A DNA stretch of 64,000 nt from a virus: the IMG/VR virus record IMGVR_UViG_3300018080_008436, positions 58,998-122,997 of that record, one strand, 5' to 3'. Numbering within the stretch: position 1 is the stretch's first letter; each line of letters starts with the position of its first letter. The translations under genes and the position numbers were made by a program. Below, piece by piece: positions 4,962-52,283 of the stretch. The notes beneath the pieces are model-generated. The model had not been told where the DNA came from. It saw nothing but the letters and a program-made list of their open reading frames with translations, and did no database searches.

Positions 4962-5024
4962 TGTATTTCTCCAATTTATATAAACATAGCATGTTGTTTG
5001 GGGATGTCAAGACGTTATTGAAAA

Positions 5025-5707: not shown

Positions 5708-5708
5708 A

Positions 5709-13669: not shown

Positions 13670-14465
13670 GCTCCTTCTTAATACTGTTTATAAATACTCT
13701 CATCTTGCGAAGTGATGCTTTCTCTATCTGCCTTATCCTTTCTCTTGTTAAACCATGCTCTACACTTAACTGCTCTAAAGTAGACTTCTTATCACTCATG
13801 AAACGTTTCTCAATGATTTTTCTCTCTCGATCATTTAACCTATCAAGTGCTTCATAAGCAATCTTCTTCATCTCTTTGTCGAAGACTTTCTTCCTTGCTT
13901 CCTCTTCAACAAAGATCGTTTCATACAAATCAATACTCGGATCTTGTGGCGCATCAAGAGATCGCATATTGTTAACAGGTTTGAATTGAGCGCGAAGAAG
14001 CTTATCTAAGCACCCTTCCTCATTAAGCATCGCCTCTTTATTGCGCTGTCTTCTCCTAATCTCATTATATGGAAGTCTCACAGTACGGGATGACTTGTCC
14101 ATGAATCCCATCACAGCGAACTTGACTGCTGTATTGAGGTAGCTCTGGAACTGAGTCTTCCCTTCGATATCGTACTTGATAATACACCTTAACACTGCCA
14201 GATAACATTCGTTCAGACAATCCATAAAAGATGAATTAGTGCTGTCAAGATGTTTTCTAACCAAGAGTACAACGAGCCTCAGATGTGAAAGAATAATTTT
14301 ATCCCTTGCTTCTAGAGCTTCGGGAGTCCAGGTCTTCTTATCTTTGTCATATCCTTTTTGCGCAATCACAACAAGTCTTCTGACTTCATCTTTATGAAGA
14401 GGATCACACTCTGATCGTTTGATATCTCTGTAATAAATATTGTCTAAGTTTACAGGTGTTGACAT
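13650..14465 (-). CDS. sigma-70 family RNA polymerase sigma factor
   Basis: Region 2 (LRLVVLLVRKH...YLNTAVKFAV) and region 4 HTH (LEQLSVEHGLTRERIRQIEKASLRKMR) are both present. Confidence 0.75.
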   Translation of the reverse strand: MSTPVNLDNIYYRDIKRSECDPLHKDEVRRLVVIAQKGYDKDKKTWTPEALEARDKIILSHLRLVVLLVRKHLDSTNSSFMDCLNECYLAVLRCIIKYDIEGKTQFQSYLNTAVKFAVMGFMDKSSRTVRLPYNEIRRRQRNKEAMLNEEGCLDKLLRAQFKPVNNMRSLDAPQDPSIDLYETIFVEEEARKKVFDKEMKKIAYEALDRLNDRERKIIEKRFMSDKKSTLEQLSVEHGLTRERIRQIEKASLRKMRVFINSIKKERGYVQS

Positions 14466-14473
14466 AGTTTCAC

Positions 14474-15322
14474 CTAGCTTCTGTCCTCGCCCTTCTCTCT
14501 TTGAATGAATCGTTTCATTTTTGCAAGGGCATCTCTTTCAATCTGTCTCACTCGTTCGCCAGACATATTGATTTCGTTTGCAATTCCTCTCAGAGTGTTG
14601 TCAACGTCTTCTTCTTTATTAAGAAACCGTCTCTCGATGATAAGCCTCTCTTTATCTTTAAGATGGCTCATGGCCTCAATAGCTATCTCTCGCATCTCAT
14701 GATCAAAAAGGATACGAGATGGATCTATCGGCATTGGTATGTCTCTAAAAGGCGAATTATGCATCTTAGAGCCATCATCGAAATCAAAGTCAATTGACCG
14801 AACATGACTGACAGGGTCGAAGTCTCCTTTTATTAATCTATCTAACGCATTAGGCGAACCGTAAATGTCATCTTCCACTTGTTGTCTTCGCATTGACTCA
14901 GCGATAGGAAGCTTTACCGAAGTCCCATGCTCTCGTATAAATCTCCAAACATGACGACGAATTGCAACCTGGGCATAAGTTGTAAAGTGAGTTGATGCAT
15001 TCACATCATATCTTGCAATACATTTTAATATCGCATAATGACATTCATTGATGCAGTCAAGGAAAAGAGGGTGCGGACTGCTGATGACCTTGTGAATGAT
15101 ATAAGGCACCAATCTGATGTTCGCTTTAACAACTTTGTTCTTAGCCTCGACTGACTCTTGCGTTTCCCATTTTTTAGTTTCAGGGTTGTAACCCGACTGA
15201 GCAACTTTGACTAGCTCTTTGATCTCTTCATTGCTGATCGGGTCATATTCTGGTTTCTGAATTTCCTTAAAGTACTGAGCTTGAGCACCTGACGATATAA
15301 CAATCCCGTCTGCGTTCTTCAA
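14474..15322 (-). CDS. sigma-70 family RNA polymerase sigma factor (paralogue)
   Basis: Region 2 (IRLVPYIIHKV...YAQVAIRRHV) and region 4 (LRGIANEINMSGERVRQIERDALAKMKR) are present; it lies in tandem with the previous sigma gene. Confidence 0.75.
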   Translation of the reverse strand: MKNADGIVISSGAQAQYFKEIQKPEYDPISNEEIKELVKVAQSGYNPETKKWETQESVEAKNKVVKANIRLVPYIIHKVISSPHPLFLDCINECHYAILKCIARYDVNASTHFTTYAQVAIRRHVWRFIREHGTSVKLPIAESMRRQQVEDDIYGSPNALDRLIKGDFDPVSHVRSIDFDFDDGSKMHNSPFRDIPMPIDPSRILFDHEMREIAIEAMSHLKDKERLIIERRFLNKEEDVDNTLRGIANEINMSGERVRQIERDALAKMKRFIQREKGEDRS

Positions 15323-15370: not shown

Positions 15371-15763
15371 TTAATACAGCGGGAGATTTCCAGTGATTTC
15401 CTTTATTTGGTCAAAGTCTGCTGGCCCAATTGAAATTCCAACCCAGACTTTGATAGATTTCTTTAATGCCTCTGATGGAACCAAGTCTTCCCACCGACAA
15501 ACAGTAAGTCCTGACTTGACTGCATCATCATAAATATCTTGAAGTTCTTCTTTGGTGTTAACAGCTAGAATAGAAATGTATGGTTTACTCATCCATTCCT
15601 GTTCTTCTTCTGAAAATGGTCTCCCCGCCAGGATGCGAGATCGCATCCATTGGTCTGAAAGATGCGCGACCTGAGCCGCAAGCAATCCTTCAGGGAGTTC
15701 GAACCCTTTTCTCACTACACATGTTAATCTTGTATTAGCCATTACTCGCTCTCCTATGTTCAT
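15371..15763 (-). CDS. peptidyl-tRNA hydrolase, PTH2 family
   Basis: RLTCVVRKGFELPEGLLAAQVAHLS matches the PTH2 K-x-V-x-V-R...G-K-xAAQ-x-H motif. Confidence 0.6.
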   Translation of the reverse strand: MNIGERVMANTRLTCVVRKGFELPEGLLAAQVAHLSDQWMRSRILAGRPFSEEEQEWMSKPYISILAVNTKEELQDIYDDAVKSGLTVCRWEDLVPSEALKKSIKVWVGISIGPADFDQIKEITGNLPLY

Positions 15764-15969: not shown

Positions 15970-16719
15970 TTAGAAAGGTTCTACATCTTCAATGAAAATG
16001 CGTTGTTCCCAACTTTGTATACTTGACTGCCTTACTCTACCCAACTCAACCCTGGATGCGAAAAGGATCATGAGCGCAATAAAAGGCATAAACAGTTGAT
16101 TAAATGCAATACCTGCTATGAACATAATGATACAACATACCACTGCAAGGTAGAATGTCACATTCATAGATAAGACGATATTCTTGGTAAAGAACATCAT
16201 GATCGATCTGAAGATTCTTCCCCCATCCATCGGCCAAGCAGGTATTAAGTTGAAGACAGCAAATATCAAATTAATCACAACAAGATATGATGGGAACTTG
16301 TATCCAGGGCCTACTACTAAACTAACTATAAAGAAAATCACCGCTAACAAAAGTGAAGTCATAGGTCCAGCCAATGCCACCCAGAACTCTTGTTTGGCAT
16401 TTTTTCTGTCTATAGGGATAGAAGCGGCTCCACCAATTGCATACAGAACAATCTTGTCAGTGTAAATTCTGAACTTCCTGGCCATAAAACAATGACCAAG
16501 TTCATGTATCAAAACACAAAACATGGCTATGGCATAAACAGCCGCATATTCCCACCCATTCAAGATAAGGAAGATAAGGAAAGCGATGGTGCATGAGAAA
16601 TGAATAGTTACAGGTATCCCAGACCACTTCCCTAAAGAGAATGAAAGTTTGTCAATCATTGTTATGCCGTTGGAATGCAATTGTAATCTCCAGTTTATAT
16701 TTGTACTTGAGTCTAACAT
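15970..16719 (-). CDS. M50-family site-2 protease (intramembrane zinc metalloprotease)
   Basis: HELGH lies inside a transmembrane helix (VLIHELGHCFMA) and a downstream PMDGGRIF (LDG) motif is present, on a polytopic membrane topology. Confidence 0.8.
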   Translation of the reverse strand: MLDSSTNINWRLQLHSNGITMIDKLSFSLGKWSGIPVTIHFSCTIAFLIFLILNGWEYAAVYAIAMFCVLIHELGHCFMARKFRIYTDKIVLYAIGGAASIPIDRKNAKQEFWVALAGPMTSLLLAVIFFIVSLVVGPGYKFPSYLVVINLIFAVFNLIPAWPMDGGRIFRSIMMFFTKNIVLSMNVTFYLAVVCCIIMFIAGIAFNQLFMPFIALMILFASRVELGRVRQSSIQSWEQRIFIEDVEPF

Positions 16720-23497: not shown

Positions 23498-23881
23498 TTA
23501 GTTAAAGACCTTGTTCAATACTTTAACCGTCTTTTCTACAAAGTCAAGCTTTCCTATGTCTTTTTTACTGATATACTTCCATTTAGAAGATTCTTCATTG
23601 ATTTTTGGTTTTTTATCGCTTTCTCCAATGTATACAGCCATATCACCATAGTTGCCGAGGAACTTGACATTTTTGGGAGTGATCCCTGCCTCTTCCTGAC
23701 ATTCTCGTATGGCTCCTTCTTTGTATGTTTCTCCCTTCTTGAGTCCACCTCCAGGGAGATTCCACTTATCAGGATTATTCTCAGACTCTTTACTCCTTTT
23801 CAGGACAAGCACTTCGCCCTTCTTGTTCTTGACAACAAAAGCGGCTGAATCAATTTTCTTTCCCACTCTAATTATCTTCAT
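23498..23881 (-). CDS. NUDIX hydrolase
   Basis: Nudix box LPGGGLKKGETYKEGAIRECQEEAGI. Confidence 0.75.
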   Translation of the reverse strand: MKIIRVGKKIDSAAFVVKNKKGEVLVLKRSKESENNPDKWNLPGGGLKKGETYKEGAIRECQEEAGITPKNVKFLGNYGDMAVYIGESDKKPKINEESSKWKYISKKDIGKLDFVEKTVKVLNKVFN

Positions 23882-25943: not shown

Positions 25944-28900
25944 TTAGCTTGTTTTGAAGATATTATACCAATCATGCTGATAAACGAGATCATCTTCGTC
26001 ATCTCCTGGCTGATAGCCTGGAGGACGAGGACCACCTGGATCGTCAATGACCCTTGGGACATATGTATCCTTTTGTGGAACTTTTTTAGCTTCTTCAATG
26101 TATTGGATTACTCTTTCATAAGCAATCCTTCCACTCTTAGTCTGTAGAACTCTTCCTTCGAAAAGTGCGTCAAGTTGTTTTATGATCTGAAGTTTGATTT
26201 CTGGGGATGGGGGATTCTTGCTGATGTTGTATGCTTTAAGAGCGGCCCTTCTGATTAATCGCTCATTCTTCTTCAACATAGGATATGAGTTCATGATTCT
26301 GGTTAGCTCTTTATAATCACCCCTTTCCAAAGCAGTCTCAGCGACTCCTACGGCTCTCTTAGACTCTCTTGATCTAAATTCCTCCACATGCTTCTCTGTT
26401 ACAATTGGTTTGCCGTAAAGATCTTGAATCTGTTTGATTATTGTATCATAATATGGATCACCTTTGTAGAACATACACATTGTGCTTAAGGTAACACATT
26501 TCTTATAAAATGCTGGATTTTTGGCAAGTCTTCCGCCATATAAATCATTAATACCTTTCATTTTGTCAAGAGGACTTTCTCCAGAATCAGAACCGTCTCT
26601 TATGTTGTTCCAGTTCAAGTATGTGCTTGTAGCATATGCTACAGCTTCTCCTAAAGAATCATCTGCGATTTCCTGAACCTTCTCTTTGATAAGCTTACCC
26701 CTGGTTCTCTTGTTCAGTTCCCCTATCTTTTCCCTATCACCTCTAGCAAATGCTGTCTGAGCATCTCTCTTTATACTTTGGTAAGTCTTCTCTGCAATAT
26801 CTTGGTAATATGGTTTAAGTGGAGTTCCGATCAATCTCTTGAAATCGTTGTAATACCCTTCTGTTTGATCCCAGCTAGTGTTCATGTCTGACAAAATCCT
26901 AGAAGCATGAGTAACTGAACGTTGAAGAAACCTTTCAGTATCAAAAAGATCACCTTTGAAGTTTTGGTTCAGAAGAATTAACTGATTATAGTTACTAGCA
27001 TCAAGGTGATTAATAGCTACTTCAGTAGCCTGTTGAATTGCTTGCTGATAAATTCGTTCATAATGCACCCCTCTAGAAAGTTCATTGTTTAATACCCTAT
27101 CAACCTGTTGGAAAAGATCTGGGTTATGAACCATCCATGTTGAACTCATCCTGATTACAGCTTCTTTGACTTCGTCTCTTGCACTTAACTCTGGGAATCT
27201 CTCCAAAATATCTCTAAATGCTGTTAGATCATTCTCTGCTAAATAGTTGATCACTTTATTTTCAGCAAGTCCTAGTGCTCCCTCATAAATAACATCAAAA
27301 TATTTCGGTTCGGATAACTTCTCATCAAAGAAATCATTTAAATTGTTAAAGGCCATTTGGTCTTCCACAAGCATTAATGAAGCTCTTTCAAGCATCATTT
27401 CAAATGCCTCTTCTTTGAACTCATCCAAATTCTCTTTAAGGTCAAAGTGAACTCTTATGTTATTAAATTTGTTGAAATTATTATCTTTAATTGCATCAAT
27501 ACAAGCTTCTGTAGCTACACCCTTAAATAAAGGCGCGGCCCCAGATTGATTAATGATTGCCTGAACATCATAAAGTAAAGTTTTTTGGGTGGCACTTTCT
27601 CTTTGATTCACCAGCCTCATATAAGCTTGGAAAGCTAAGTCTTGGACTTCTTTGTGTTTAACGGGGATTGATCCCATTTGGTTGTTCAATTTAGCAAAAT
27701 CAACCCTTTGTGTATTAAGGTAATCTTTTGCACCTTCTTCGATAATAGTTTCCAACTCTTTTTTAATGAGTTCGATGGATAACTGTTGTACCACTGGGTC
27801 TTTCTTTAAAAAAGAGTATCGGCCTAAATTAAACTCAACTTCATTTGGAGAAATAGATACTAATCTATCTCGACAAACTTTGTGAAATCTCGATGCTTGG
27901 ATTTCTTTGCGCATACCATCAATTTCTTTCTTGTGGTCTTTGGCTTCATTCAACGTCCATCTGACTTTCTTGACATCTTCTCTTCGTCTTGCCTCATCCT
28001 CTTCAGTCTCGCCTCTGGTTTTCCTCAAAGCTTGTTCTTGCTTTGCTGAATCTTGAATTTTTGCATTTATCTTAGCATCCATATTTTCAAGACCATTTAT
28101 ATAAGCATCTGCTTTGGCAGAATAGAACAAATTCTCAACTTTTGAAAGCTTTGTGATCTCCTTCCTATTTACCCACATTCGATTCTTTTCATTTCGAAGT
28201 GATTCAATTTTCTTCCTAACCTCTGCAACAAGTTTTTCTAAAGGTAAATTTAGTTTTATATTCGCTTTCTCTAAAGCTATCGTCAATTCAGATCTTCCGA
28301 GACCTTGCCTTACCTTCTTTTCAAAAAGTTCATCATCTATTTTAAAACCATATTGACTAAGAAGTTTTCCTTTATCTCCTTTATGCAAGTCAGCGAAGCA
28401 CTCATCCATGTTACTGACTGCTCCTTTGGAGAATTTATCAATTGTACTATTGTCTAAGTAATAGAAAGCATGCCCATTAGAAGTTATCTCTGGATCACTC
28501 ACCATATTAGTAATTTCTTCGATGTTTTTCCCAGATAGGTCTTTAACCCTTTCCTCGTCTTCACGAAGTTTTTTGAGGTTGTAGTGACCGGTCTTGTTCA
28601 TCTCAGAATTGATATGTGGATGTCTTTGACAGAGATTATATACTTTGTCAGCATACGGGACGATAGTGATATCCTTATTATTCAGCCCTCTAACTTCTTG
28701 TATTCGGCTACCGATGAACCTGATCGCCACTCTTGGGGCACCACCCTCTACATAGAACCAGAAATCTCCTTGGTAAGTATAATCTTTTGCGGTTCCAAGT
28801 CCACCTATGCACCATCCAGCACTATTAGTCAACATACTAATAATCTTGCCTCTGGCATCAGAAGTGGTTACATCCAGACCCCTAATTTGATTTCTAATAT

Positions 28901-29846
28901 CCTCTGGGTATTTTATTTTGGCACCGACATTTCTTCCACCAGGGATAACAACCCAATCATTCTTAAGCCCCTTAATATCTTCTTGAGAGACTTTATTAAG
29001 AGCATCTTCACCTTCGAGGTTCTTTTGTGTATTAAAATATGATGAAAATATTTGCTTATTACCCAGTGGCCTTTTGGAACTCTTCATCTCTTCATAGATA
29101 GGAGCAAGTTCTTCTTTCTTCGCCAAGGCTTCTTGTAAGTTTTCTTCAGCTTTTTTGATAACTACAGGTGCTTCATTTTTCTTTTTAAGTTGATTAACCT
29201 GATTGGTCAACTTAGACACTTGTTTGTTCAAGTTCTGGTAAACTGATGCTGTTTTTTCCTCCAAAACATAGATTCCACTTTCTATGTCTTCCTGCGTAAT
29301 TCCAAATTTTGCTAAGGTCTGAGTCTTAAGTCGATCACCAGCAAGTGCCTGCATATAGTTGTCAATCTTCGGAACGGACATCTCTTCATAAGATGCTTGC
29401 AAAACCTTATCTGTTGGTTCTGCGAGGGGACTGTTGGCAACAGAAACGGAAAGAATATAAAGGAAAGGATTGCTAAGTCTGTAAGTAAATTCTTTTGGTT
29501 GTTCGCCAAATAGAAGGTTCTCCCACTTAGGGATCTGCATCATGGCTTTAAGATAAACTCTTCTGTCTTGGTAAGATAACTCTTGCTTTTGAAGATCTTT
29601 GGCATCGAAGGTTAAAATCTTCTCAAAGTTAGCCTTGGATTTTTCTAAGAGTTCTTTAGCTTTTCCACTGACAATAAACTTGTCGATTTCTGCTCGTAAG
29701 CTTTTCTCATCATTGATGGCCTGCCAGTCAAGGTAGGCTCCACCTTTTCTATCTTCCAGGTTACAGATATTGATTAAGAGGGGATCAGTGGGATTTCCTG
29801 CACTTTTCAGCTTCTCTTCAACTTTTGCAATTTTAATGAATTTCAT
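25944..29846 (-). CDS. large hypothetical protein (1300 aa)
   Basis: The longest ORF in the window, with no recognisable catalytic motif and a coiled-coil segment around residues 200-250. It may be a virion or injected protein. Confidence 0.5.
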   Translation of the reverse strand: MKFIKIAKVEEKLKSAGNPTDPLLINICNLEDRKGGAYLDWQAINDEKSLRAEIDKFIVSGKAKELLEKSKANFEKILTFDAKDLQKQELSYQDRRVYLKAMMQIPKWENLLFGEQPKEFTYRLSNPFLYILSVSVANSPLAEPTDKVLQASYEEMSVPKIDNYMQALAGDRLKTQTLAKFGITQEDIESGIYVLEEKTASVYQNLNKQVSKLTNQVNQLKKKNEAPVVIKKAEENLQEALAKKEELAPIYEEMKSSKRPLGNKQIFSSYFNTQKNLEGEDALNKVSQEDIKGLKNDWVVIPGGRNVGAKIKYPEDIRNQIRGLDVTTSDARGKIISMLTNSAGWCIGGLGTAKDYTYQGDFWFYVEGGAPRVAIRFIGSRIQEVRGLNNKDITIVPYADKVYNLCQRHPHINSEMNKTGHYNLKKLREDEERVKDLSGKNIEEITNMVSDPEITSNGHAFYYLDNSTIDKFSKGAVSNMDECFADLHKGDKGKLLSQYGFKIDDELFEKKVRQGLGRSELTIALEKANIKLNLPLEKLVAEVRKKIESLRNEKNRMWVNRKEITKLSKVENLFYSAKADAYINGLENMDAKINAKIQDSAKQEQALRKTRGETEEDEARRREDVKKVRWTLNEAKDHKKEIDGMRKEIQASRFHKVCRDRLVSISPNEVEFNLGRYSFLKKDPVVQQLSIELIKKELETIIEEGAKDYLNTQRVDFAKLNNQMGSIPVKHKEVQDLAFQAYMRLVNQRESATQKTLLYDVQAIINQSGAAPLFKGVATEACIDAIKDNNFNKFNNIRVHFDLKENLDEFKEEAFEMMLERASLMLVEDQMAFNNLNDFFDEKLSEPKYFDVIYEGALGLAENKVINYLAENDLTAFRDILERFPELSARDEVKEAVIRMSSTWMVHNPDLFQQVDRVLNNELSRGVHYERIYQQAIQQATEVAINHLDASNYNQLILLNQNFKGDLFDTERFLQRSVTHASRILSDMNTSWDQTEGYYNDFKRLIGTPLKPYYQDIAEKTYQSIKRDAQTAFARGDREKIGELNKRTRGKLIKEKVQEIADDSLGEAVAYATSTYLNWNNIRDGSDSGESPLDKMKGINDLYGGRLAKNPAFYKKCVTLSTMCMFYKGDPYYDTIIKQIQDLYGKPIVTEKHVEEFRSRESKRAVGVAETALERGDYKELTRIMNSYPMLKKNERLIRRAALKAYNISKNPPSPEIKLQIIKQLDALFEGRVLQTKSGRIAYERVIQYIEEAKKVPQKDTYVPRVIDDPGGPRPPGYQPGDDEDDLVYQHDWYNIFKTS

Positions 29847-39365: not shown

Positions 39366-40391
39366 CTAGAACGTACCATCTATAATGTTTACAAAATGCT
39401 TTCTAATAAAAGAAGCACATGCGTTATTGATCGTTTTGTTAACTCGTTTTTCTTCACTCTTTTCGAGTTTCTCAAAAATAGTGGATTCATCTTTCAGCAT
39501 ATCTTTTCGAACATCCTGAGCAAAGGCCCCCATGAGTTTTCCGAATTCTTTCTGACTGATCTCTCCAATATGAGACAGAACATTTCTTAGTCTGTTTTCT
39601 GTAATGTATTCGTCAGCAACTTGAGTTACTCTTTGGGCCTCTTCAGAAACCACTACAGGTTTTCTTTCTTTAGGAACTCTTTTCCTTTCTGTGAACTTTT
39701 CATTCTTTGATTTAAGAATGACTCTTGATCCACAAGGGTCACAAATAGAAACCAAAGGCTTGAGGACATTCCCCTCGCAGATGTTACCCTCAATCTCTGG
39801 AAGACCATAATGCTTATAAGTCGGATCTGGATAATCATTAGGATAGTCCAAGCACTCTTCAAATGTTCCAACATGCAAAGCTTTGGCGTAAAGGGTGAAT
39901 CCAGCTTCATCCATTACTTTAACAAAATTATCATAGCTCATAGGAGTGCTCTTCTCTCCCCTAATGTAGATATCAAATGGAAAGAAATCAACGTCTGGAC
40001 AGTACCAAACCTTGTTCTGAACCATCTTTACGCCTTGAACAGGCTCTACATCTGGATGAGGATATCTTCCACCAAACAGCTCCCCATAAATCTGAACAGT
40101 AGTGTCCTCATCCAGATTAAACATGTTAAGGATAATCTCCCTAGCCAAATTGACCCTTACTAGGTAACGATTTCTCACCTTCTGGAAGTTGAAAAAGTTT
40201 TCGTCTTCTGACAGCCAGCTTGTTCTTTTTGAGCACTTGACTCCATTACTATCAGCATACATTGAAAAATTAGCACCATGGATCTTAGTTGTAACGATCC
40301 AGGGATTTGCGGTATAACCACGGGTTACGTAGCTATCAATGGTTTTCTTTCTGTCAGAGTTGTCAATCTCGGTGTACTTCCTGAAATTCAT
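39366..40391 (-). CDS. RNA ligase, T4 Rnl2 family
   Basis: MNFRKYTEIDNS...WIVTTKIHGANFSM carries the KxHG nucleotidyltransferase motif I and is collinear with T4 Rnl2 (MFKKYSSLENH...VAREKIHGTNFSL). Confidence 0.85.
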   Translation of the reverse strand: MNFRKYTEIDNSDRKKTIDSYVTRGYTANPWIVTTKIHGANFSMYADSNGVKCSKRTSWLSEDENFFNFQKVRNRYLVRVNLAREIILNMFNLDEDTTVQIYGELFGGRYPHPDVEPVQGVKMVQNKVWYCPDVDFFPFDIYIRGEKSTPMSYDNFVKVMDEAGFTLYAKALHVGTFEECLDYPNDYPDPTYKHYGLPEIEGNICEGNVLKPLVSICDPCGSRVILKSKNEKFTERKRVPKERKPVVVSEEAQRVTQVADEYITENRLRNVLSHIGEISQKEFGKLMGAFAQDVRKDMLKDESTIFEKLEKSEEKRVNKTINNACASFIRKHFVNIIDGTF

Positions 40392-42445: not shown

Positions 42446-42811
42446 CTATCGTGAGAACCTTTTGATGTAAGGATCAAATTGTTCCCAAGGAATCTCATTG
42501 TGACAATTGAATTCTCCGAAGAAACTTTCTTCTGTTTTCCGATCCCTGTAGAAGCACTCCCATACTTCTCCAATCAATTCAAACTCCATGTAGTTCTGAC
42601 TGTCGTCCAGAGCAAGCATAAACTCATTCTGAACGCCAGAAGGAGCCGCATCCATGTTCAGGTTCGGATAACGCTCATGAAAGGCTTCCCAGAAGCTTAA
42701 AACGATAAGAGAAGCGTCAACCGACAACAACTGCCGATTGACGCAATCCTCAACGTACTCTTCCATGGACTTATGACTTCTTGGTGAATCGTCCATTCTT
42801 TCCTCGTACAT
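42446..42811 (-). CDS. hypothetical protein
   Basis: 121-aa ORF. Confidence 0.35.
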   Translation of the reverse strand: MYEERMDDSPRSHKSMEEYVEDCVNRQLLSVDASLIVLSFWEAFHERYPNLNMDAAPSGVQNEFMLALDDSQNYMEFELIGEVWECFYRDRKTEESFFGEFNCHNEIPWEQFDPYIKRFSR

Positions 42812-43823
42812 TGTGATATTTCTTCCCGCTAGGCTTGTAGCCGAACGACTGAGTGGTTGGGGGAGTCGAAGTCCGTTTGATGAAACGGCCTTTCACATCT
42901 CTTGCAGGAGTTGGCTTGACAGAATCACCAACTGGTGCAACAAATGCATCGTCATTAGCCTGATCATCTGTCTCGGCAACCGTTTCAGCAACCGTTTCAG
43001 CTTCCTTGGCCTTCTCAGCCTTGACATGAACCATTTGTTTATGAACATCCTGGTTGGTGTCAATGTATGACTCTTCGAACGCTTCCTCTTGTTCGCGATT
43101 TGAAGAATCATATTCTGCAATAACCTCATAGCAACAGGCGCGTCCTTTGGTGTTGTTGTAATCGCGAGGAATCGCAACAACATCGCGAGGGTTGATCTTA
43201 ACAATAACAACTCGACTATTGTGCAAACAACCATATTTTGGGAGATAGGTGAGAGAACAGAAATGCAAACCCTTTGAACAGGTCCGATCCCGATCATCAT
43301 CGACCTCATCCCGATCCATATGAACAATTGCGCCAATAGAATGATCCAAGTGAGTCCCGTCAGGAGAAGCATGAATTGACTTCAAATCCATGTTGACCTT
43401 TTTATAGGCCAAGAAACACCCATCGTCTGTGACTGGATTGTTCCCCGTCTCCAAAAAGAGGTAGAGTTCGTCTTTGGCGCTTTGAAGTGGGTTCTTCAGA
43501 ACATTTTCCAGGAAGGCAATGAGTGGCTCAAAAGGATAGCCCTTTTCGCTAAACTTAAGGATGCGGTCAACAAGAACATTGTGAATCTCTTCGCCGTTGT
43601 AGAAGATAGCTCCGTTTTGAAAAACAACTTTCCCATCAGAGCATTTGTTGATTGCTAGGGGGACATTCAGAAATTCTTCGAGTCTATCGTAGTCCTTCCG
43701 GTTCAGCTTTTCCCGAATGGTCTCGTAGTTACGATGGTCAGTGGTTACATTGTAGGGGGTGCCGTTGACGTAAACGGTAACGTCCCCAGAGTTGTGATCA
43801 ATGATGTGGGCTACATGGCTCAT
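42771..43823 (-). CDS. rIIB: rIIB-like protein
   Basis: Collinear with T4 rIIB: VLVDRILKFSEKGYPFEPLIAFLENVLKNP against T4 LVDRILDSMEKGENFEFYFPFLENLLENP. Further matches include DDGCFLAYKKV, CSKGLHFCS, and VKINPRDVVAIPRDYNNTKGRACCYEV against T4 VKVHPRDVVSIPIDYNDAKMRTCQYEV. Confidence 0.85.
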   Translation of the reverse strand: MSHVAHIIDHNSGDVTVYVNGTPYNVTTDHRNYETIREKLNRKDYDRLEEFLNVPLAINKCSDGKVVFQNGAIFYNGEEIHNVLVDRILKFSEKGYPFEPLIAFLENVLKNPLQSAKDELYLFLETGNNPVTDDGCFLAYKKVNMDLKSIHASPDGTHLDHSIGAIVHMDRDEVDDDRDRTCSKGLHFCSLTYLPKYGCLHNSRVVIVKINPRDVVAIPRDYNNTKGRACCYEVIAEYDSSNREQEEAFEESYIDTNQDVHKQMVHVKAEKAKEAETVAETVAETDDQANDDAFVAPVGDSVKPTPARDVKGRFIKRTSTPPTTQSFGYKPSGKKYHNVRGKNGRFTKKS

Positions 43824-43832: not shown

Positions 43833-46034
43833 CTATTTGTAGAGCTTGTACTGGACCATTGCATTAATATAGTCCAAGAGATTGTTAATTCCAATGGGAC
43901 CGCCATAAAATTTATCAAAATCAAGGAAAAAAGGATATCGTTGTCCAAATTCATCCAACAACTCTTGATTTTTGGCTGAATATTGACGAATGGCTTTGAC
44001 CTCATCAGTCGTCAAGGTAGAATATCCTTCAGAAATATGATCCCATACCAAACGAGTGATCTTCTTGATCCCTTTGGACGTACAACGCTTCTGCTTGTCG
44101 TACCGTTTCGCCAGTTCCTTCAGGACTGGACATTTGCATTGCTTCATCCAAGTGCTTTTTCCGATCAGACCATCTTCATGACGAGTCTCAGGATATCGAT
44201 TGATTGATCGAAAAAGTTTCACAGTCTTACCATAGTCAACATCTTCGCTATTGATAAAAGTCTGCAACTCATCATGTACATTGGGCAACAGTGCATATTG
44301 ACGAATGATCTCTTGAACGAAATCAAACCAATTGATCCAGTCATCTCGTTTCTCAAGTGACTTGACTTTGGCGACTTTAACCCCATAAACAGTATGAAGC
44401 ATGTTGGGACAAATCAACTTATACATAGCGTTGAGTTTGTGCAAGAACTCATGCGGGGACTGGGTTTCGTTATTGTGGACAGTCTTCCAACGAGAGATTG
44501 GGACATAGAACCCACCTTCGTTTATATCGAAGTTATCTTCGTCTTTAACATTTGACCAGTAGGAAGAGTTATCAATTGGACAGTTGTCATCCCAGGACAT
44601 CTTGACAAAGTTTCCAAAAGCAGACACTTCTCGTTTTGCCCGAATGGCTTTGGGTGGTTCGATCTCGCTAAGCATGCGGATTTTTATGTCCTCGCCCATA
44701 CCCATCTCTTTACGAATTTGTTCGATGATCTTTTTGTTCGATGACTTGAACAGGTAGACATCTGAGACATGTCCATTTTCTTCGAGGAACTTCTTCACCC
44801 GAAGCATGTGGCGGCTAGTGCAATCGTTCAAAAAGAACGCGCTACGCTTACCAACCTTTATTCGAGCGCAAGGTTCGGACTTTACCACAGTCTCGTTAGA
44901 GTACCGACGACGATAGCTACTATGATAGAATACCCGAGTCAGAGTGCAATTCTCATCAATTTCATGGTAGTCTTTCATATTAACGCCAATCATCTTAGCG
45001 ACAATACGATCCTTGTATTTCACTTTAACATGGTTGAACAGAAGTTCAACGATCTTGTTTCGCTCCTTTTCTTCCCAGAACCACAATGACGCATCCCAGT
45101 AGTTATTGTGCTTCTCAACTTCTTTTTGTACGCGCTCTTTTTCAAAAGCGATGATACCCTGAACTCGTTCCCGAATCGCATTAGTGGTCTTCTCATCATA
45201 CGAGAGGGATTCGCGAGACGGGGTGATTTCCAGGTCTCCGATATCATAGAAGATATCCAAAGGGAAGGAGCGAAGAATCGACCGTTCATCTGCTGAAAAA
45301 TCCACCTTGTCCAAGCTAACAGGGTATGCGACATTTCCCATGACAGCAACCGCATTTCCATTTCGATTGGCCGAAAGACCCCAAACGCCATTTTGAGTGA
45401 TATACTCGCGTTTCCGAATGGAAGGTACGTTCCCAACGAAGTTTGGCCGATGTTCGAAATAAAAGAAGATGCTTTCGGCCTTATACTTGAATTCATGGAT
45501 ATCATTTTTCTTGACAGAGAACTGAACCTTCAGACCATTCTTCTCATCTGTATCCGACTCACTAATCAATGCGATAGTCGGAGTGCCTGCTTCATTCAGA
45601 AGAGCAGAGTATACATACTGTTTCCCCTGAAGAAAGCTAGTGATTGTAAACATGTCTACATAGGAGAAGGGGGACTTGGAACCAAGACCCAGGCAACCAA
45701 CTTCGTCATTAGTATCGGTCTTGGTTGATTCGAAGTAAGTGGTGTAAATCTCTTCGATGTCTGCCTTACTAAGGCCAGTACCATAGTCCCGAATATAGAA
45801 AAGAGGGTGGAAAGGAGTGGGGAGATGAACGTCGAAAGGGATGTCGAGGGTTCCTGCTTCAACATGAGCATCGTAAGCATTACAGCTAAGTTCTCGGATG
45901 ATGGCCCGAATTTTGTCAGAGTACAAGCCGTCAGAGAGGATTCTAAAGGCTTTCGCATTTGCTTTGATCTTGAATTCTTGTTCTTTAAAGTTCCCAGATC
46001 GTTCCAGCTTGCGATTTTTCTCGATGGTCTTCAT
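43833..46034 (-). CDS. rIIA: rIIA-like protein (GHKL/HSP90-type ATPase domain)
   Basis: [31 protein letters not shown]...[11 protein letters not shown]...[21 protein letters not shown] is collinear with T4 rIIA ([30 protein letters not shown]...[21 protein letters not shown]), and the length (733 aa) matches. Confidence 0.85.
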   Translation of the reverse strand: [733 protein letters not shown]

Positions 46035-47375: not shown

Positions 47376-47482
47376 TTTTAGTACTCCTGTTTTTTAGTAT
47401 TTTCAGTTACTGGTTCTACTGTAGCTCAACTAAGTAGAATGTCAAATCGGTTTAACCGATTTTCTTATACTATTATACAAAT

Positions 47483-47722
47483 TTACTGCATGATCATAAT
47501 AATACTTAATGCAATAACCATAAACACAATCATGCCAATTTGAGCAGTAAGGAACAGGATATAGCCGTCTTGTCTGGAAGCTTCTCTATACCACTGAGGA
47601 TTTCTCATTTTTGTAAGCCACATGATTGGAAAACCAAAAACAACAAGTGTGGAAAGTAGAATCCCCAAAATAAGTTTTAGAGCGAAGGCCGTGAAACCAA
47701 AGATAAAACTTATTACTCTCAT
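47483..47722 (-). CDS. small membrane protein
   Basis: Two transmembrane helices. Confidence 0.35.
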   Translation of the reverse strand: MRVISFIFGFTAFALKLILGILLSTLVVFGFPIMWLTKMRNPQWYREASRQDGYILFLTAQIGMIVFMVIALSIIMIMQ

Positions 47723-48450
47723 TTTTTACCACAGCATTTTTTATAATTTACGGGCTTCCCGTTGACTTCCTTACCGCATGGACAAGGCTCATTTCTCCCA
47801 ATCTTCTCTGATCGTACAGTCAGATGGTCTGGAGCGACAAGCTCTTCTTGAACACCATCAAGGTGATCTTGTTCATGTTGCCAAACCTGAGCTTCCCATC
47901 CTGAGAGTTCTGCGGTTTTCTTTTCTCCTTCCTGGGTCCAGTATTCGACATCGATTCTGAGATATCGGTCAGCAATAACCTTTTTATTTGGCCATGTCAA
48001 ACACCCTTCAACTCTACTTTGAGGATCACCATGTTTGGCAACAATCCTGGGGTTGATGAAAACCTTCCATTCCCCATCACCTTCACCTTCCGCCTTGGAA
48101 CAGAACATCCGATACATGAATCTATCGCCATTGATGTCCTCTAACTGATTGGCGGCGAGTCCCACTGCATTTCCAGTTTTTCTGGAACGTTTGAGAAACT
48201 CGTTAATTATTGCTTGATTATCTTTGATCCACTGATCGATGTCCTCAATCTCTGGGACTTTGGGAGTCTGTTCATTTGTGGCAATCTTCAACATAATTGG
48301 TTTCCTTTCAAAAACTGATTCAAATTCACTGATGGCCTTTTGTGCTTTAGCCATCTCACTAAGATGCCTAAGTTTTATCCTGTCAATATCAAAATATGAC
48401 TTGGGCATAAGATGTACATTCTCAAGATCCTTGTAATCTTTATGACCCAT
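47719..48450 (-). CDS. def: peptide deformylase with C-terminal SEC-C zinc-binding motif
   Basis: All three PDF motifs are present: GNAVGLAANQ (GxGLAAxQ), EGCLTWP (EGCLS), and QHEQDHLDG (QHExDHL). The C-terminus PCPCGKEVNGKPVNYKKCCGKK is a SEC-C motif. Confidence 0.85.
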   Translation of the reverse strand: MGHKDYKDLENVHLMPKSYFDIDRIKLRHLSEMAKAQKAISEFESVFERKPIMLKIATNEQTPKVPEIEDIDQWIKDNQAIINEFLKRSRKTGNAVGLAANQLEDINGDRFMYRMFCSKAEGEGDGEWKVFINPRIVAKHGDPQSRVEGCLTWPNKKVIADRYLRIDVEYWTQEGEKKTAELSGWEAQVWQHEQDHLDGVQEELVAPDHLTVRSEKIGRNEPCPCGKEVNGKPVNYKKCCGKK

Positions 48451-48790
48451 GGTTCCTAATCCTTATCACCTTGTCTTGATGCAATCGGTGGAACTCTCTG
48501 TTAGCCTTCCTTCTCAGTGGTCTCTTAAAGAAATCTGTCCATTTCCTCCAAGATGTCCACTGAATATGAACCAGAGGCTGGTGATGATCCTCACAAACGG
48601 TAATTCCGTTCTTCAGTTCGAAAGCTTTCTCTGGGTAAATTGACTTGGGATATATGTGATGAGCATGAGCCGTTTTTTTGCATCGTTTACCGCAGACATG
48701 ACAAGTGAAATCATCCCTCAGTCTGACCAATGTTGACCAACGTCTCAAATGATACTCATTCAGCACTACTCTTCCTCGTTTCTTTCCCAA
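48440..48790 (-). CDS. HNH endonuclease
   Basis: CHVCGKRCKKTAHAHHIYPKSIYPEKAFELKNGITVCEDHH is an HNH motif. Confidence 0.7.
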   Translation of the reverse strand: MGKKRGRVVLNEYHLRRWSTLVRLRDDFTCHVCGKRCKKTAHAHHIYPKSIYPEKAFELKNGITVCEDHHQPLVHIQWTSWRKWTDFFKRPLRRKANREFHRLHQDKVIRIRNHGS

Positions 48791-49050
48791 TAGTCAAACG
48801 GATTGTACCCACTGGAGAGTTCATTCTCTTCGAACAAACCAAGAACGGTAGGTTCCTCTGTAACAAGAGTAATGTCCCCTTGTCTCATGTTGTCATAGAC
48901 TTCTGAGTGTTTCCCCAGAACCTCACCGAAATAAACACGCTTGCCGATGATTTCCTTAACTTCCTTTCTGGTAGCGACAAAGACTCCTTCCAGGTCCCCT
49001 TGTCTACCACAGTTCCAGTAAAATTTGTAAATACCTTTTGTGTCTTCCAT
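48766..49050 (-). CDS. hypothetical protein
   Basis: 94-aa ORF. Confidence 0.3.
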   Translation of the reverse strand: MEDTKGIYKFYWNCGRQGDLEGVFVATRKEVKEIIGKRVYFGEVLGKHSEVYDNMRQGDITLVTEEPTVLGLFEENELSSGYNPFDYWERNEEE

Positions 49051-49062
49051 TTTCTTTACCTA

Positions 49063-49845
49063 TTAAATGTCATCAATCGTTGGGGGCGCTTGATGTTTGT
49101 GTTTATTTGCATAATGCATCTTTCTGACAAATGCACCAACAACAGACTTTTCCCATTCGCCTGTTTCTTTGAATCTTCTGATAACAGGTTCCATCTCATC
49201 GTAAGTGTAACCCAATTCTTTTTCGTCAGTCTGCCCATCCCAAAGTCCAGCAGACGGGACTCTGTCAATATGACGTTCTTCAATGTCGCCTCTCTCAACA
49301 AACCATTCAAGCATACCATACACTTCAGATTTGAAAAGATGACCGATGGGGAAGAAGTCTGCGAGAGCATCCCCACCCTTGGTATCATAACCGATAAAAT
49401 CCTCCGAAAGGTTCCCCGTACCCATGACTCGAACTCTTTGGTTGCTGTAATCCCTGGCGAACTTTTCTGACAGAGTACAACAATAAGTGTAAAGAGCGAC
49501 CATTCGCATACGACTTCTCATATTGCCAGAGTTCAATTCTGAAATTTTGAGATGTCCAAATTCATCTTCAAGAGAATCACAAGTTTCCCTGATGAAAATC
49601 ATTTCGCCCTTTACTCCAAGATTACTAGCGATATCCAATGACCTTGCATTGAACTTGCTTCCACTCAAATCTCGGTTGTCATAAGGCATATGCAAAACGT
49701 AAACATTCTCTGCCCCAAGAGCTTCTTTGCACAGAAGCGTTACCAGAAGAGAGTCAACTCCCCCACTTAAACCAATTACGGCCTTATCAGTGAATTTCGC
49801 AATTGCATCTGTAATTCTTTCAATTTCTCCTGGGATTGATTCCAT
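49063..49845 (-). CDS. nadE: NH3-dependent NAD+ synthetase
   Basis: PP-loop GLSGGVDS, and GNLSEDFIGYDTKGGDALADFFPIGHLFKSEVYGM matching the NadE GYFTKYGDGxxDxxPLxxLxKxxV block. Confidence 0.8.
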   Translation of the reverse strand: MESIPGEIERITDAIAKFTDKAVIGLSGGVDSLLVTLLCKEALGAENVYVLHMPYDNRDLSGSKFNARSLDIASNLGVKGEMIFIRETCDSLEDEFGHLKISELNSGNMRSRMRMVALYTYCCTLSEKFARDYSNQRVRVMGTGNLSEDFIGYDTKGGDALADFFPIGHLFKSEVYGMLEWFVERGDIEERHIDRVPSAGLWDGQTDEKELGYTYDEMEPVIRRFKETGEWEKSVVGAFVRKMHYANKHKHQAPPTIDDI

Positions 49846-49857
49846 TCTTCCACCTCT

Positions 49858-50274
49858 TTATATGTTTACTATTGTACTTACAGTGTCTTCTTGATTCTCA
49901 TAAGGGAAATGAATCCAAAAGTCATACTTGTTTTCAAATCCAAAATAGGTTGGCTGGATAGTTGAAGTTTTGTTAAGGACTATCACCGCTACATCAAGAT
50001 TTTTGTAGTCGATATGTTTGAACAGTCTCTCCAAAGTTCCCCCGCTATCAAGGATATCATCACAAATCAGAGTATTGAAAGAGATATCGGATTCACTTAC
50101 AATAAGAGGGATATCCAAAGCATGAGAAAGCATAACAGCAGGGATAAGACCGCCTCTGGGAACTCCATATATGTTTTCATACATATCATCACCCTTTCTT
50201 TCCTTGATCTCTTGGGCGATTTTATCAACATTGTGAGCGAAGTACTTCCAACTTATGTCTCTAATCTGCTTCAT
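49858..50274 (-). CDS. type I phosphoribosyltransferase (xanthine-guanine PRT-like)
   Basis: YGVPRGGLIPAVMLSHALDIP, ICDDILDSGGTL (PRPP-binding loop), and DFWIHFPYE resemble the Gpt motifs AVSRGGLVPGALLARELGI, VIDDLVDTGGT, and DTWIEQPWD. Confidence 0.6.
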   Translation of the reverse strand: MKQIRDISWKYFAHNVDKIAQEIKERKGDDMYENIYGVPRGGLIPAVMLSHALDIPLIVSESDISFNTLICDDILDSGGTLERLFKHIDYKNLDVAVIVLNKTSTIQPTYFGFENKYDFWIHFPYENQEDTVSTIVNI

Positions 50275-50777
50275 TACTCTTCAGTCCTTGGTTCCATGGC
50301 CATTTGCTTACCAATATGCAAATCAAATCCTTGTCCATCCCACTCATACAACTCCTTTTCGTATTCGACAAGAAGTCCGACAATAGAGTTTCCATTTGAG
50401 ATTTCAAATCTTTCCACAAGATCCTTTATGGACTCAAGGAATTCATGTAAAGGAATGGGGTCCTCTTTACACAAAGGACAAATTTGGTCAATCTTTCCTG
50501 GGTGCTCTGCAAAGAACTCTGCCATCTCATCGAAAGTTATCTCATTGATTGGGGGAAGTTCTGGATCGTATCCAAAATAATCATTAGATGCTTCAAGCTT
50601 GATGTTGAAGTTTTCATGCATCTCTTTGAATTTTTCGAACACTTCTGGATAGCATTCTTTACAAAACGTATGTCCTTTGGAGCAACAAAGAATACCAGAT
50701 TCATATCCAGTAGATTGAGTGGCTGTACAGATTTCGTATGAACATTTGTCGCAAGTAAGAAAGTCTGAGGAATCCAT
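50274..50777 (-). CDS. zinc-finger protein
   Basis: CDKCSYEIC...CCSKGHTFCKEC...CPLCKE. Confidence 0.4.
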   Translation of the reverse strand: MDSSDFLTCDKCSYEICTATQSTGYESGILCCSKGHTFCKECYPEVFEKFKEMHENFNIKLEASNDYFGYDPELPPINEITFDEMAEFFAEHPGKIDQICPLCKEDPIPLHEFLESIKDLVERFEISNGNSIVGLLVEYEKELYEWDGQGFDLHIGKQMAMEPRTEE

Positions 50778-50800
50778 TGTAATTCTCCTGTGTTAAAAAT

Positions 50801-50878
50801 TGGTCGGGGTGAGACGATTCGAACGTCCGACTTCTTGCTCCCAAAGCAAGCGCTCTAACCAGGCTGAGCTACACCCCG
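50801..50878 (-). tRNA. tRNA-Pro (UGG)
   Basis: The minus-strand sequence CGGGGTG-TA-GCTC-AGCCTGGTTA-GAGC-G-CTTGC-TTTGGGA-GCAAG-AAGTC-GGACG-TTCGAAT-CGTCT-CACCCCG-A-CCA forms a canonical cloverleaf. Confidence 0.85.
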
Positions 50879-50885
50879 ATGTTAA

Positions 50886-51206
50886 TTATTTCACTCCGAA
50901 AAGACGAGCGACAAGACTTTCAAGAGGCCCTCGTTCTCTTTCCTCACATGCACAACCTTCTGCACAGTTTCCTGAACAAGTGCAATCATCCAACTTACAA
51001 TCGTTGTAAGGCTTGGATTCGACTTCGGGTTCAGGGATGGGTTCGGGTTTGGGTTTGGGTTTTGATGGCTGGACCGACAAAGGAATGTCGAACTTAGTGG
51101 CAAACTTTTTGACCTCGACAAGATCAACTTGATTTGCCAATGCATCAGTAATGGCCTGAACGGCCTCATCTCTGGTTGTAGCCAACGCTCTTGTTTCCCA
51201 GTTCAT
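50886..51206 (-). CDS. small protein with (KP/EP) repeats and Cys-rich C-terminus
   Basis: PSKPKPKPEPIPEPE followed by CKLDDCTCSGNCAEGCACE, with tandem GGGTTT DNA repeats at about 51040-51065. Confidence 0.4.
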   Translation of the reverse strand: MNWETRALATTRDEAVQAITDALANQVDLVEVKKFATKFDIPLSVQPSKPKPKPEPIPEPEVESKPYNDCKLDDCTCSGNCAEGCACEERERGPLESLVARLFGVK

Positions 51207-51480
51207 TGTTGCTCTCCTGTCTAGGTTTGTATTTAAGTTACTATATCATAACTCATCAAAATCAAATGTCAAATCGTTTTGAGAAATTTACCATGTATTT
51301 GGGGGCGACTGCGTTATATTCGAAAAAACAACAGCCCCTAATACTATTAACACATTGATAAATGAGATCAGTATAACTGTCCAAATCAATTGAGTTAGAC
51401 TCATTGACAGAAGAAACACCAGTAATGCTTCTGGTAGCAGAATCATAATGCCAACTCCGTTCCTCTGCACCTCTTTTCCA

Positions 51481-51915
51481 TCACCCCATTACCTTTACCA
51501 ACTCTTGAAGACCATAATTACTGCAAAAGTCCTTTCGAATATGATCCCCCTCAATCAGTTCCTGCACTTTTTCCACTATTTTTCTGGCCTTCTCTTCTTT
51601 ATCTTTCAATGGAACTACGTTGAACAAAGACTTACCTTCCCCAGGACAGTAGTAAATAGTTGTCAGACAGTTCTTCGGATAGAATCGAGTCTCATGCCAC
51701 TTCAATGTAGGATTACTGTCTTTGTCATACCAATTAGCTTTGGCGAACTGTTTGTTGTATTCTTCCCAATAAGAAAAATCAAGACTGATTCTCCAAACAC
51801 CATCGTTATCTACATGAGCATCAACAACTTTTGCTCTTTGCCTTTTATCAAAGTCCATGTCATGTTTTTCAACATAGTCAGTGAATTCAACATGCTTACC
51901 AATATAGCCTTTCAT
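51481..51915 (-). CDS. hypothetical protein
   Basis: 144-aa ORF. Confidence 0.4.
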   Translation of the reverse strand: MKGYIGKHVEFTDYVEKHDMDFDKRQRAKVVDAHVDNDGVWRISLDFSYWEEYNKQFAKANWYDKDSNPTLKWHETRFYPKNCLTTIYYCPGEGKSLFNVVPLKDKEEKARKIVEKVQELIEGDHIRKDFCSNYGLQELVKVMG

Positions 51916-52283
51916 TGTGTTTTCTCCAACGGTTTATTTCTGTAAAATTTATTTCCATCAGTATGCAGTCTTCTCTTTTCAATAGAACGAATCAAATTGA
52001 ACATTGCAGACCCTACACCTTTCTTACGAAACTTTTTGCGGACGAAGATCCCAATGTTCGGAGTACCAAGACATCCTCTGTATCGCATCCTGGCTTTTGT
52101 TGTGCAGGCGACTCCGATGTATTGTCCCTGAAATTTTGCCAGAACCATTAATGAAATAAGTTCTGGAGTCGAATAGACCTTCCTCAATGTCCATCCGTTA
52201 ACGTATAACCTATTAGAAATTGCAACCTTCGTCATCTCTCTAATCTCTGCCCTACGTCTTGAAATTTCAAACTCTATCTTCAT
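51912..52283 (-). CDS. GNAT-family N-acetyltransferase (putative)
   Basis: Motif A-like R-x-x-G-x-G/A (RKKGVGSAMF) on a ~120-aa protein. Confidence 0.45.
   Translation of the reverse strand: MKIEFEISRRRAEIREMTKVAISNRLYVNGWTLRKVYSTPELISLMVLAKFQGQYIGVACTTKARMRYRGCLGTPNIGIFVRKKFRKKGVGSAMFNLIRSIEKRRLHTDGNKFYRNKPLEKTQ

Follow-up and report, generated by a model that had tools for sequence, protein, structure and literature searches.

Enzymes of nicotinamide adenine dinucleotide (NAD+) metabolism are known from large phages. 'NAD-jumbo phages' with pncB-nadD-nadE clusters have been described, with PARP among their NAD+ consumers (Li et al. 2024, PMC11662467), and phages also rebuild NAD+ through the NARP1 (Adps and Namat) and NARP2 (Nampt and Nmnat) pathways (Osterman et al., bioRxiv 10.1101/2024.02.11.579819). 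Other phages replace deoxyguanosine (dG) in their DNA with 7-deazaguanines: phiST contains dDG at 302,000 per 10^6 nucleotides and immuto_2-6A contains fdPreQ1 at 345,000 per 10^6 nucleotides, the dG peak being gone, and among the subfamilies 'DpdA3' has the highest efficiency (Cui et al. 2023, PMC10516641). Here we analyzed a stretch of 64,000 nucleotides (hereafter, the window; positions 58,998 to 122,997 of IMG/VR virus record IMGVR_UViG_3300018080_008436), in which a gene for an NH3-dependent NAD+ synthetase (NadE) adjoins a gene for a small type I phosphoribosyltransferase (PRTase) (Table 1). The original prediction, made from the sequence alone, had taken the pair as an NAD+ synthesis module in a genome that also encodes an NAD+-consuming PARP. 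Both open reading frames (ORFs) lie where it had placed them, and the PARP gene is present as well; the favored reading, to which we assign a probability of about 70%, is that the two genes are adjacent but functionally independent auxiliary metabolic genes (AMGs) of a ~524-kb megaphage, one for NAD+ synthesis and the other for guanine-type purine salvage.

Compared with the NAD-jumbo phages (PMC11662467), the phage relatives of the window NadE likewise cluster with pncB, nadM-Nudix, and pncA, whereas the window NadE itself has no pathway partner within 64 kb. The theme of phages rebuilding NAD+ is shared with NARP1 and NARP2, but the window contains neither a Prs/Adps-like two-domain protein nor a protein of the NAMPT/NAPRTase family. 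Moreover, Adps of NARP1 combines Pribosyltran_N and Pribosyl_synth in ~280 to 320 aa and is adjacent to Namat, whereas the window PRTase is a single-domain protein of 138 aa that has the generic loop for phosphoribosyl pyrophosphate (PRPP) alone in common with Prs-like proteins. With the phrog_8995 PRTases of immuto and phiST, it shares membership in one short family, all of the invariant residues being kept; unlike the immuto gene, it adjoins NadE, with no deazaguanine gene in the window. The NadE and PARP half of the finding is correct yet known, since NadE, NAD+ salvage clusters, and PARP-type consumers have already been described in jumbo phages, and the idea of joining NadE with PARP has been published for them (PMC11662467).

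NadE and its genomic context

The NadE product matched Pfam NAD_synthase (PF02540) with an E value of 6.6e-45 (153.6 bits versus a cutoff of 21), TIGR00552 nadE with 156.1 bits (cutoff, 63.65), and phrog_11189 'NAD synthetase', and it scored below the cutoff of the narrower archaeal-type equivalog NF010587 (171.7 versus 255). It aligned to the solved NH3-dependent NAD+ synthetases 2e18 (2e-31), 3p52, 1xng, and 3fiu, resembling 2e18 (P. horikoshii) and 3p52 (C. jejuni) in domain, length class, PP-loop, and substrate and Mg motifs. Four motifs were kept relative to these two structures, namely, the SGGVDS P-loop (residues 27 to 32), GN..SR.RM, GT.N.SE..GY.TK.GD, and PSAGLW.GQTDE.ELG, and all of them were invariant across five aligned phage relatives. 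A single NAD_synthase domain occupies residues 19 to 236, and the protein has no glutaminase (CN-hydrolase) domain. Family scores and motifs bear out the product as a genuine NH3-dependent NAD+ synthetase, as originally proposed, and its catalytic motifs are intact.

The neighbors of NadE relatives were labeled in 17 viral loci fetched for this purpose. Results revealed that an NAD+ partner (PncB, NMNAT-Nudix, PncA-like, or Prs/NAMPT-like) or a PARP stands beside the NadE relative in 16 of these loci. Members of the close NadE clade share 43 to 52% identity with the window protein by tblastn, and the homologues from L001 to L004 share 50 to 53% with it in a five-sequence alignment; of these four loci, three have PncB, NMNAT-Nudix, or PncA-like genes and the fourth has a WGR-PARP. 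Counted over the seven distinct close-clade loci, PncB, NMNAT-Nudix, or PncA-like genes occur within 6 kb in five and a WGR-PARP occurs in one, with no NAD+ partner found within 6 kb of NadE in L100. PncB directly follows NadE in L002, is one gene off in L101 and L102, and is ~5 kb away in L003. In addition, L001 has an NMNAT-Nudix fusion together with an isochorismatase (PncA-like), and L002 has a PncA-like gene. In L004/L005, a WGR-PARP lies 2 kb downstream of NadE and an Apyc1-like gene lies upstream.

The distant NadE clade (L103 to L111; n = 9) shows another arrangement, in which a PncA-like gene, a Prs-like gene (~277 aa), a NAMPT-like gene (~574 aa), and a 141-aa gene are followed by NadE, the string spanning about 2400 to 6700 in each locus. 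This order joins a NARP1-like pair to a nicotinamidase and NadE, which suggests hybrid NAD+ reconstitution/Preiss-Handler clusters in large phages. The ~277-aa proteins were considered as members of the small PRTase family and rejected, the overlap being limited to the generic PRPP loop and Pfam identifying them as Prs-like with a NAMPT-like partner. NadE is also annotated in many cultured phages and in uncultured phages of 642 to 735 kb. A phage NadE of the window's kind is a reliable NAD+ gene, and its association with PARP recurs.

The window PARP lies 8.6 kb upstream of NadE. It matched Pfam PARP (1.2e-26) and WGR (2e-12) as well as PARP_reg, and in the alignment with the catalytic domain of human PARP1 (2.6e-25), its H (LWHGT), Y (GVYASD), and E (NEMIVY) fell on the catalytic triad. 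This PARP is real and looks catalytically competent, and the NAD+ consumer of the original prediction is confirmed. Among the window's minus-strand ORFs of at least 75 aa, a Pfam search for NAD+ partners gave no match to PncB, NadD, NMNAT, NAMPT, or Prs.

As a side observation on the phage NadE loci, NadE in the two related phage contigs L004/L005 lies between a metallo-beta-lactamase that is Apyc1-like (anti-Pycsar family, 9.4e-25) and a WGR-PARP (3692-4513 and 8945-10177); these surroundings look like a counter-defense island.

The small phosphoribosyltransferase

The PRTase matched Pfam Pribosyltran (1.2e-9) and phrog_8995 'phosphoribosyl transferase' (1.6e-11). Its best NCBIfam model was the xanthine PRT PRK09177 (Gpt equivalog NF006613), at 43.7 bits versus a cutoff of 138; the protein is a relative but not a member of this equivalog. 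The closest solved structure was 1vdm, a 153-aa purine PRT of P. horikoshii (2.3e-11, and 6e-28 with the 32-member family profile), followed by the S. solfataricus HGXPRT 4z1o, the adenine PRT chain 4trb, and then bacterial xanthine-guanine PRTs (XGPRTs), an enzyme type whose likeness had been noted in the original prediction. All 51 specific solved-structure matches were PRTases, comprising 50 purine PRTases, one near-threshold orotate PRTase, and no nicotinate or nicotinamide PRTase. An AlphaFold2 (AF2) model built on the family alignment reached a pLDDT of 89.4, and its top 50 Foldseek matches in the PDB were purine PRTases without exception (50/50; TM, ~0.72 to 0.77), which favors a purine substrate over nicotinate or nicotinamide.

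A true two-gene NAD+ module would require the PRTase to act in the role of PncB, converting nicotinate and PRPP to nicotinate mononucleotide (NaMN), which would reach NadE via a host or phage adenylyltransferase. The two genes are co-oriented and 12 nt apart, and PncB, which was not found in the window, lies within 6 kb of NadE in four close relatives (in two of them within one gene), as such a module would have it. Nicotinate and nicotinamide PRTases differ in fold and Pfam family from type I purine PRTases. Those known to act on nicotinate, nicotinamide, or quinolinate are type II enzymes (Pfam NAPRTase), whereas the window PRTase has the type I fold and gave no match to the NAPRTase family (PF04095 and PF17767) even at an E value of 0.1; moreover, it keeps each invariant residue of a family that occurs in guanine/7-deazaguanine contexts. 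Together with the gene neighborhoods given below, these features leave the two-gene module hardly any credibility.

A 32-member alignment of the family revealed 13 invariant positions (G37, R40-G41-G42-L43-I44-P45-A46, S50, D72, D76, G78, and E126), all of which (13/13) are kept in the window PRTase, and six near-invariant ones (W9, D73, T80, P108, W120, and P124). The PRPP loop ICDDILDSGGT (with D72, D73, and D76) and the pyrophosphate (PPi) loop PRGGLIP are both present. D76 aligns with D92 of XGPRT and D137 of HGPRT, and the segment FWIHFPYE aligns with TWIEQPWD of XGPRT; we take the Asp equivalent to D76 to be the N7-contacting residue typical of 6-oxopurine PRTs and the W-I motif to serve base stacking. 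The family comprises 263 representatives at 50% identity that score E ≤ 1e-30; almost all of the 150 representatives listed have 113 to 150 aa, and within the representative library the window PRTase ranks first against the family profile (6.7e-40), being itself a member of the query alignment.

The family is marked by a deletion. According to HMMER alignments, it lacks ~25 to 30 residues that in 1vdm, 4z1o, and XGPRT make up a beta-hairpin and a flexible loop, and the AF2 secondary structure likewise shows no hairpin where the second core strand leads toward the PRPP loop. In comparison with Gpt (E. coli 1a95/1nul) and the archaeal enzymes 1vdm and 4z1o, the PRTase is alike in its type I fold, its RGG PPi loop, its acidic PRPP loop with a 6-oxopurine-type Asp, and its C-terminal W-I-x-x-P-[WY]-[ED] base-stacking motif, but it measures 138 aa versus 152 to 180 aa owing to the deleted hairpin and loop, and the GVPRGGLIPAVMLSH motif is far more conserved in its family than in Gpt. 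Sequence and modeled fold place the PRTase in the Gpt/archaeal purine-PRTase clade, as a member without the loop.

Such a protein might be catalytically weak or inactive, acting instead as a binder or regulator that sequesters, for example, PRPP, GMP, or (p)ppGpp-like nucleotides. The segment missing throughout the family is the one that closes the canonical active site, and one of the fold matches is an XGPRT-like protein crystallized with ppGpp (5vog), both of which fit this idea. However, the motifs contacting PRPP, PPi, and the base are invariant or nearly so in 32 diverse members, and this invariance suggests selection for catalysis in a family whose 263 representatives remain at E ≤ 1e-30; fusion or adjacency to the GTP-consuming FolE also fits a metabolic enzyme. 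A noncatalytic role is therefore judged unlikely.

A still less probable option is that the PRTase takes adenine freed by defense nucleosidases back into AMP, a counter-defense parallel to NAD+ reconstitution. The same structural clade does hold the adenine PRT 4trb, which is thought to derive from a 6-oxopurine PRT, and NadE and PARP give the genome a counter-defense flavor. Canonical adenine PRTs have an Ala at the position of the 6-oxopurine PRPP-loop Asp. In the window PRTase, this Asp (DS/TG) is present as a 6-oxopurine signature, and the family context is centered on guanine and GTP (FolE and IMPDH/GMP reductase).

Linkage of the PRTase family to 7-deazaguanine clusters

A census of viral loci took in the 80 nearest to the window PRTase (out of more than 327), with 6 kb on either side; neighboring ORFs were clustered without prior labels, and the top clusters were then annotated. 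The most frequent neighbors were a QueE-like radical SAM protein (55 of the 80 loci), FolE (54), QueD (46), QueC (34), and a 264-aa DpdA of the immuto type (32), followed by PolB (29), a MazG/PRA-PH-like hydrolase (27), a DCD-like protein (12), and IMPDH/GuaC (4). The 264-aa family is the one annotated as DpdA in phage immuto (hidden Markov model [HMM], 1.6e-106). At least one deazaguanine gene was present in 64 of the 80 loci and at least two were present in 54, and after dereplication at 50% identity, the association was kept in 24 of 34 PRTase clusters. FolE is the immediate neighbor of the PRTase in 35 loci, and the two are fused into one ORF in three (L087, 5992-6870; L073, 5926-6882; L053, 568-1689).

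None of the 80 PRTase loci contained NadE, PncB, NMNAT, PncA, or PARP, and the PRTase family was absent from all 17 phage NadE loci. The PRTase loci without deazaguanine genes had mixed neighbors, none of them an NAD+ gene, and in one of these loci the neighbor was a PnrA-like purine-nucleoside-binding protein. Thus, of the NAD+ module first proposed, the NadE part stands, with relatives in NAD+ clusters or 2 kb from a WGR-PARP, and so does the PARP part. The PRTase part is not supported, because apart from one orotate PRTase this protein matches purine PRTases only and its loci carry deazaguanine genes (64/80) rather than NAD+ genes (0/80). The case of a purine-salvage PRTase with no NAD+ connection, named in advance as contradicting the module, is essentially what was found. 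The PRTase has no supportable NAD+ role and should not be annotated in an NAD+ pathway.

Seven look-ups of PRTase homologues in metagenomes agreed with the census. Six were guanine centered, and the seventh (P0012) repeated the arrangement of P0013. Five homologues lie in, or ~3 kb from, QueD/QueE/FolE/QueC(/QueF/DpdA) clusters, and the sixth is translationally coupled to a 345-aa gene of the IMPDH/GMP-reductase family. Two cultured phages carry the family, Flavobacterium phage immuto_2-6A as gp211 (L099, 6899-7294) and Cellulophaga phage phiST as gp064 (L098, 6977-7405), with family HMM scores of 1.9e-54 and 6.2e-34, respectively. In immuto, gp211 stands between QueE and FolE, with the DpdA gp206 three genes downstream.

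Linkage of the PRTase family to FolE, the GTP-consuming first enzyme of 7-deazaguanine synthesis, is tight and recurrent, and in occasional cases the two are fused. The words phosphoribosyl and PRPP are absent from Cui et al. 2023 (PMC10516641) and Hutinet et al. 2019 (PMC6884629), and a full-text literature search for a PRTase in a 7-deazaguanine context returned nothing relevant; this link appears not to have been reported before. One key paper on the 7-deazaguanine pathway described a failed reconstitution, for which 'other unknown enzymes' were suspected, and the PRTase is a concrete candidate for such an enzyme, touching on an open problem in phage DNA hypermodification. The family could also serve as a simple marker gene for 7-deazaguanine modification systems. 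More tentatively, and with considerable doubt, the family may be a core accessory, so far unrecognized, by which phages hypermodify their DNA with 7-deazaguanines, above all in dG-replacing DpdA3-type systems, either closing a guanine-GTP-7-deazaguanine loop or phosphoribosylating the 7-deazaguanine base. If so, the 524-kb phage would also be predicted to modify its guanines, with the other genes lying elsewhere in its genome or with recourse to the host queuosine pathway. A DpdA3 profile search gave 3,512 matches, and among the 120 listed none was on the 524-kb contig, a result that bears neither way on this prediction.

In the second of these roles, the PRTase would phosphoribosylate a 7-deazaguanine base (CDG, preQ0, or DG) for incorporation before replication and would flag a cryptic deazaguanine system, in which even NadE might be a QueC-like amidating enzyme. 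Clustering of the family with MazG/PRA-PH-like (27/80), DCD-like (12/80), and PolB (29/80) genes is in line with this, as are the complete replacement of dG in the carriers phiST and immuto and the detection of the ADG nucleoside in infected cells (PMC10516641). Amidation by a PP-loop enzyme is common to NadE and QueC, and NadE gave a weak QueC match (8.6e-4). However, the HMM scan of the window found no QueE, QueD, FolE, DpdA, PolB, or MazG-like gene, the QueC model touching only NadE, and weakly (E = 0.0048). DpdA occurs in at least 32 of the 80 PRTase loci, where a guanine-releasing base exchange already explains insertion. The invariant D76, at what is presumably the N7-contacting position, suits a purine with a normal N7 better. 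As for a QueC-like function, the window NadE groups at 50 to 53% identity with the NadE proteins of PncB, NMNAT-Nudix, PncA-like, and PARP loci. Phosphoribosylation of a 7-deazaguanine base is accordingly regarded as improbable.

Two adjacent and probably independent auxiliary metabolic genes

The favored reading is thus one of two AMGs packed side by side, since their adjacency recurs in none of the 80 plus 17 loci. Using ATP and free ammonia, NadE would amidate nicotinate adenine dinucleotide to NAD+ (or possibly NaMN to nicotinamide mononucleotide [NMN]), the last step of the Preiss-Handler route, and might boost or restore NAD+ for phage users such as the WGR-PARP, or upon depletion of the pool. 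As PncB and NadD/NadM were not found in the window, these partners would be supplied by the host or by the genome outside the window.

The PRTase would be a minimal 6-oxopurine PRTase, most likely guanine preferring, that converts a free base and PRPP to the nucleoside monophosphate. In deazaguanine phages, base exchange by DpdA would expel one guanine for each 7-deazaguanine inserted, and each 7-deazaguanine would cost one GTP at FolE, so that conversion of guanine and PRPP to GMP and on to GTP would close the loop. Guanine recycling would explain why the family is linked and fused to FolE and why its N7-type Asp is invariant. In the window phage, with no deazaguanine genes near, general purine-base salvage is the economical reading and the most likely role of the PRTase, and the nucleotidase and nucleoside hydrolase homologue encoded in the window could yield free bases. 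The data show the gene identities, conserved motifs, fold, and comparative gene contexts; from these we infer the substrates, the recycling of guanine, and the ability of an enzyme without the loop to catalyze the reaction.

Several points weigh against this interpretation. The two genes lie on the same strand with a 12-nt gap and are probably cotranscribed, an arrangement that in bacteria often means shared function. In four related phages, NadE has PncB at its side; PncB was not found here, which formally leaves a 'PRTase-shaped' gap. In addition, the flexible catalytic loop is missing from the family, so that its PRTase activity is a prediction, and base specificity has shifted in this clade on an earlier occasion, with an adenine PRT of S. 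solfataricus among the fold matches. Finally, the gene survey covered the 64-kb window of a ~524-kb genome, ~460 kb of which lies outside it.

Only three other window genes are loosely related, an NT5C-like 5'-nucleotidase (2944-3558), an inosine-uridine nucleoside hydrolase homologue (4065-4961; 36.7 bits, just over the cutoff), and a 127-aa Nudix protein (23498-23881); the three and the PRTase might make up a nucleotide-nucleoside-base-nucleotide salvage chain.

Gene string and other genes of the window

The contig carrying the window is ~524 kb long, and its source is a megaphage. Independent assemblies showed the same gene order, among them contigs of 523,871 bp and 524,692 bp, and the PRTase protein was identical across several assemblies. 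On the 523,871-bp contig (ENA ERZ27256796 k141_941235), the window falls at roughly 195 to 259 kb. A near-DNA search of GenBank phages with positions 48000 to 52000 matched at the tRNA-Pro alone and gave no close cultured relative. Nearly every gene of the window is on the minus strand.

Table 1. Features around the nadE and PRTase genes, with positions in the window
Feature	Position	Strand	Basis
NadE, NH3-dependent NAD+ synthetase (predicted), 260 aa	49063..49845	-	Pfam, TIGR00552, PHROG, solved-structure alignment
Loop-less Gpt-like type I purine PRTase (predicted), 138 aa	49858..50274	-	Pfam, PHROG, solved-structure profile, AF2 fold
Cys-rich ORF, 167 aa	50274..50777	-	ORF list; sub-threshold RING-like Pfam matches only
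phrog_5848 ORF, 94 aa	48766..49050	-	PHROG 6e-30
tRNA-Pro (TGG), upstream of the gene string	50801..50878	-	ARAGORN
WGR-PARP_reg-PARP protein, 441 aa	58468..59793	-	Pfam, PARP1 alignment

The gap between the PRTase and NadE genes contains the Shine-Dalgarno-like AGAGGTGG. Upstream, the stop codon of the 167-aa ORF overlaps the start of the PRTase gene (TAATG), and downstream, the 94-aa ORF begins 12 nt after NadE. The 167-aa product has the pattern CxxC...CC..GH.FC..C...CPLC, and its gene is translationally coupled to the PRTase gene; neither the 80 PRTase loci nor the 17 NadE loci contained a homologue of it, and the 94-aa ORF was likewise not found in other NadE or PRTase loci. A promoter and terminator scan of positions 47400 to 51600 gave counts at chance level, from which no transcription-unit boundaries can be claimed.

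RNA-repair genes (RtcB, Thg1-like, RNA ligase, and Archease) repeatedly adjoin phage NadE or PRTase genes, as in L003 (4186-5487), L100 (5168-5956), L104 to L111 (~480 to 1750 and ~9270 to 10100), L009 (6350-7387), and L016 (2014-2433), and the window itself encodes an Rnl2 (39366-40391). A peptide deformylase (PDF) with a C-terminal Cys-rich tail (47719-48450) lies 0.6 kb downstream of NadE, and 9 of the 80 viral loci have a PDF homologue no more than 6 kb from the PRTase.

The other window genes include sigma factors, PDF, PTH2, an M50 protease, ThyX, Rnl2, rIIB, and GDP-sugar enzymes. A DUF6939 protein (9260-9868), guessed from its sequence to be NADAR-like, was dropped because neither solved structures nor Pfam supported it, and a 1300-aa protein (25944-29846) had zero Pfam matches. 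Judged by eye, a 71-aa ORF (3555-3770) may encode translation initiation factor IF-1. The sigma factors are two and sigma-70-like; with the PTH2 peptidyl-tRNA hydrolase and the M50 site-2 protease, they are encoded at 13650-14465, 14474-15322, 15371-15763, and 15970-16719. An rIIB-family protein (Pfam Phage_T4_rIIB; 42771-43823) stands beside a 733-aa protein with a weak HATPase_c match (43833-46034), and the two may be an rIIA/rIIB pair in a megaphage.

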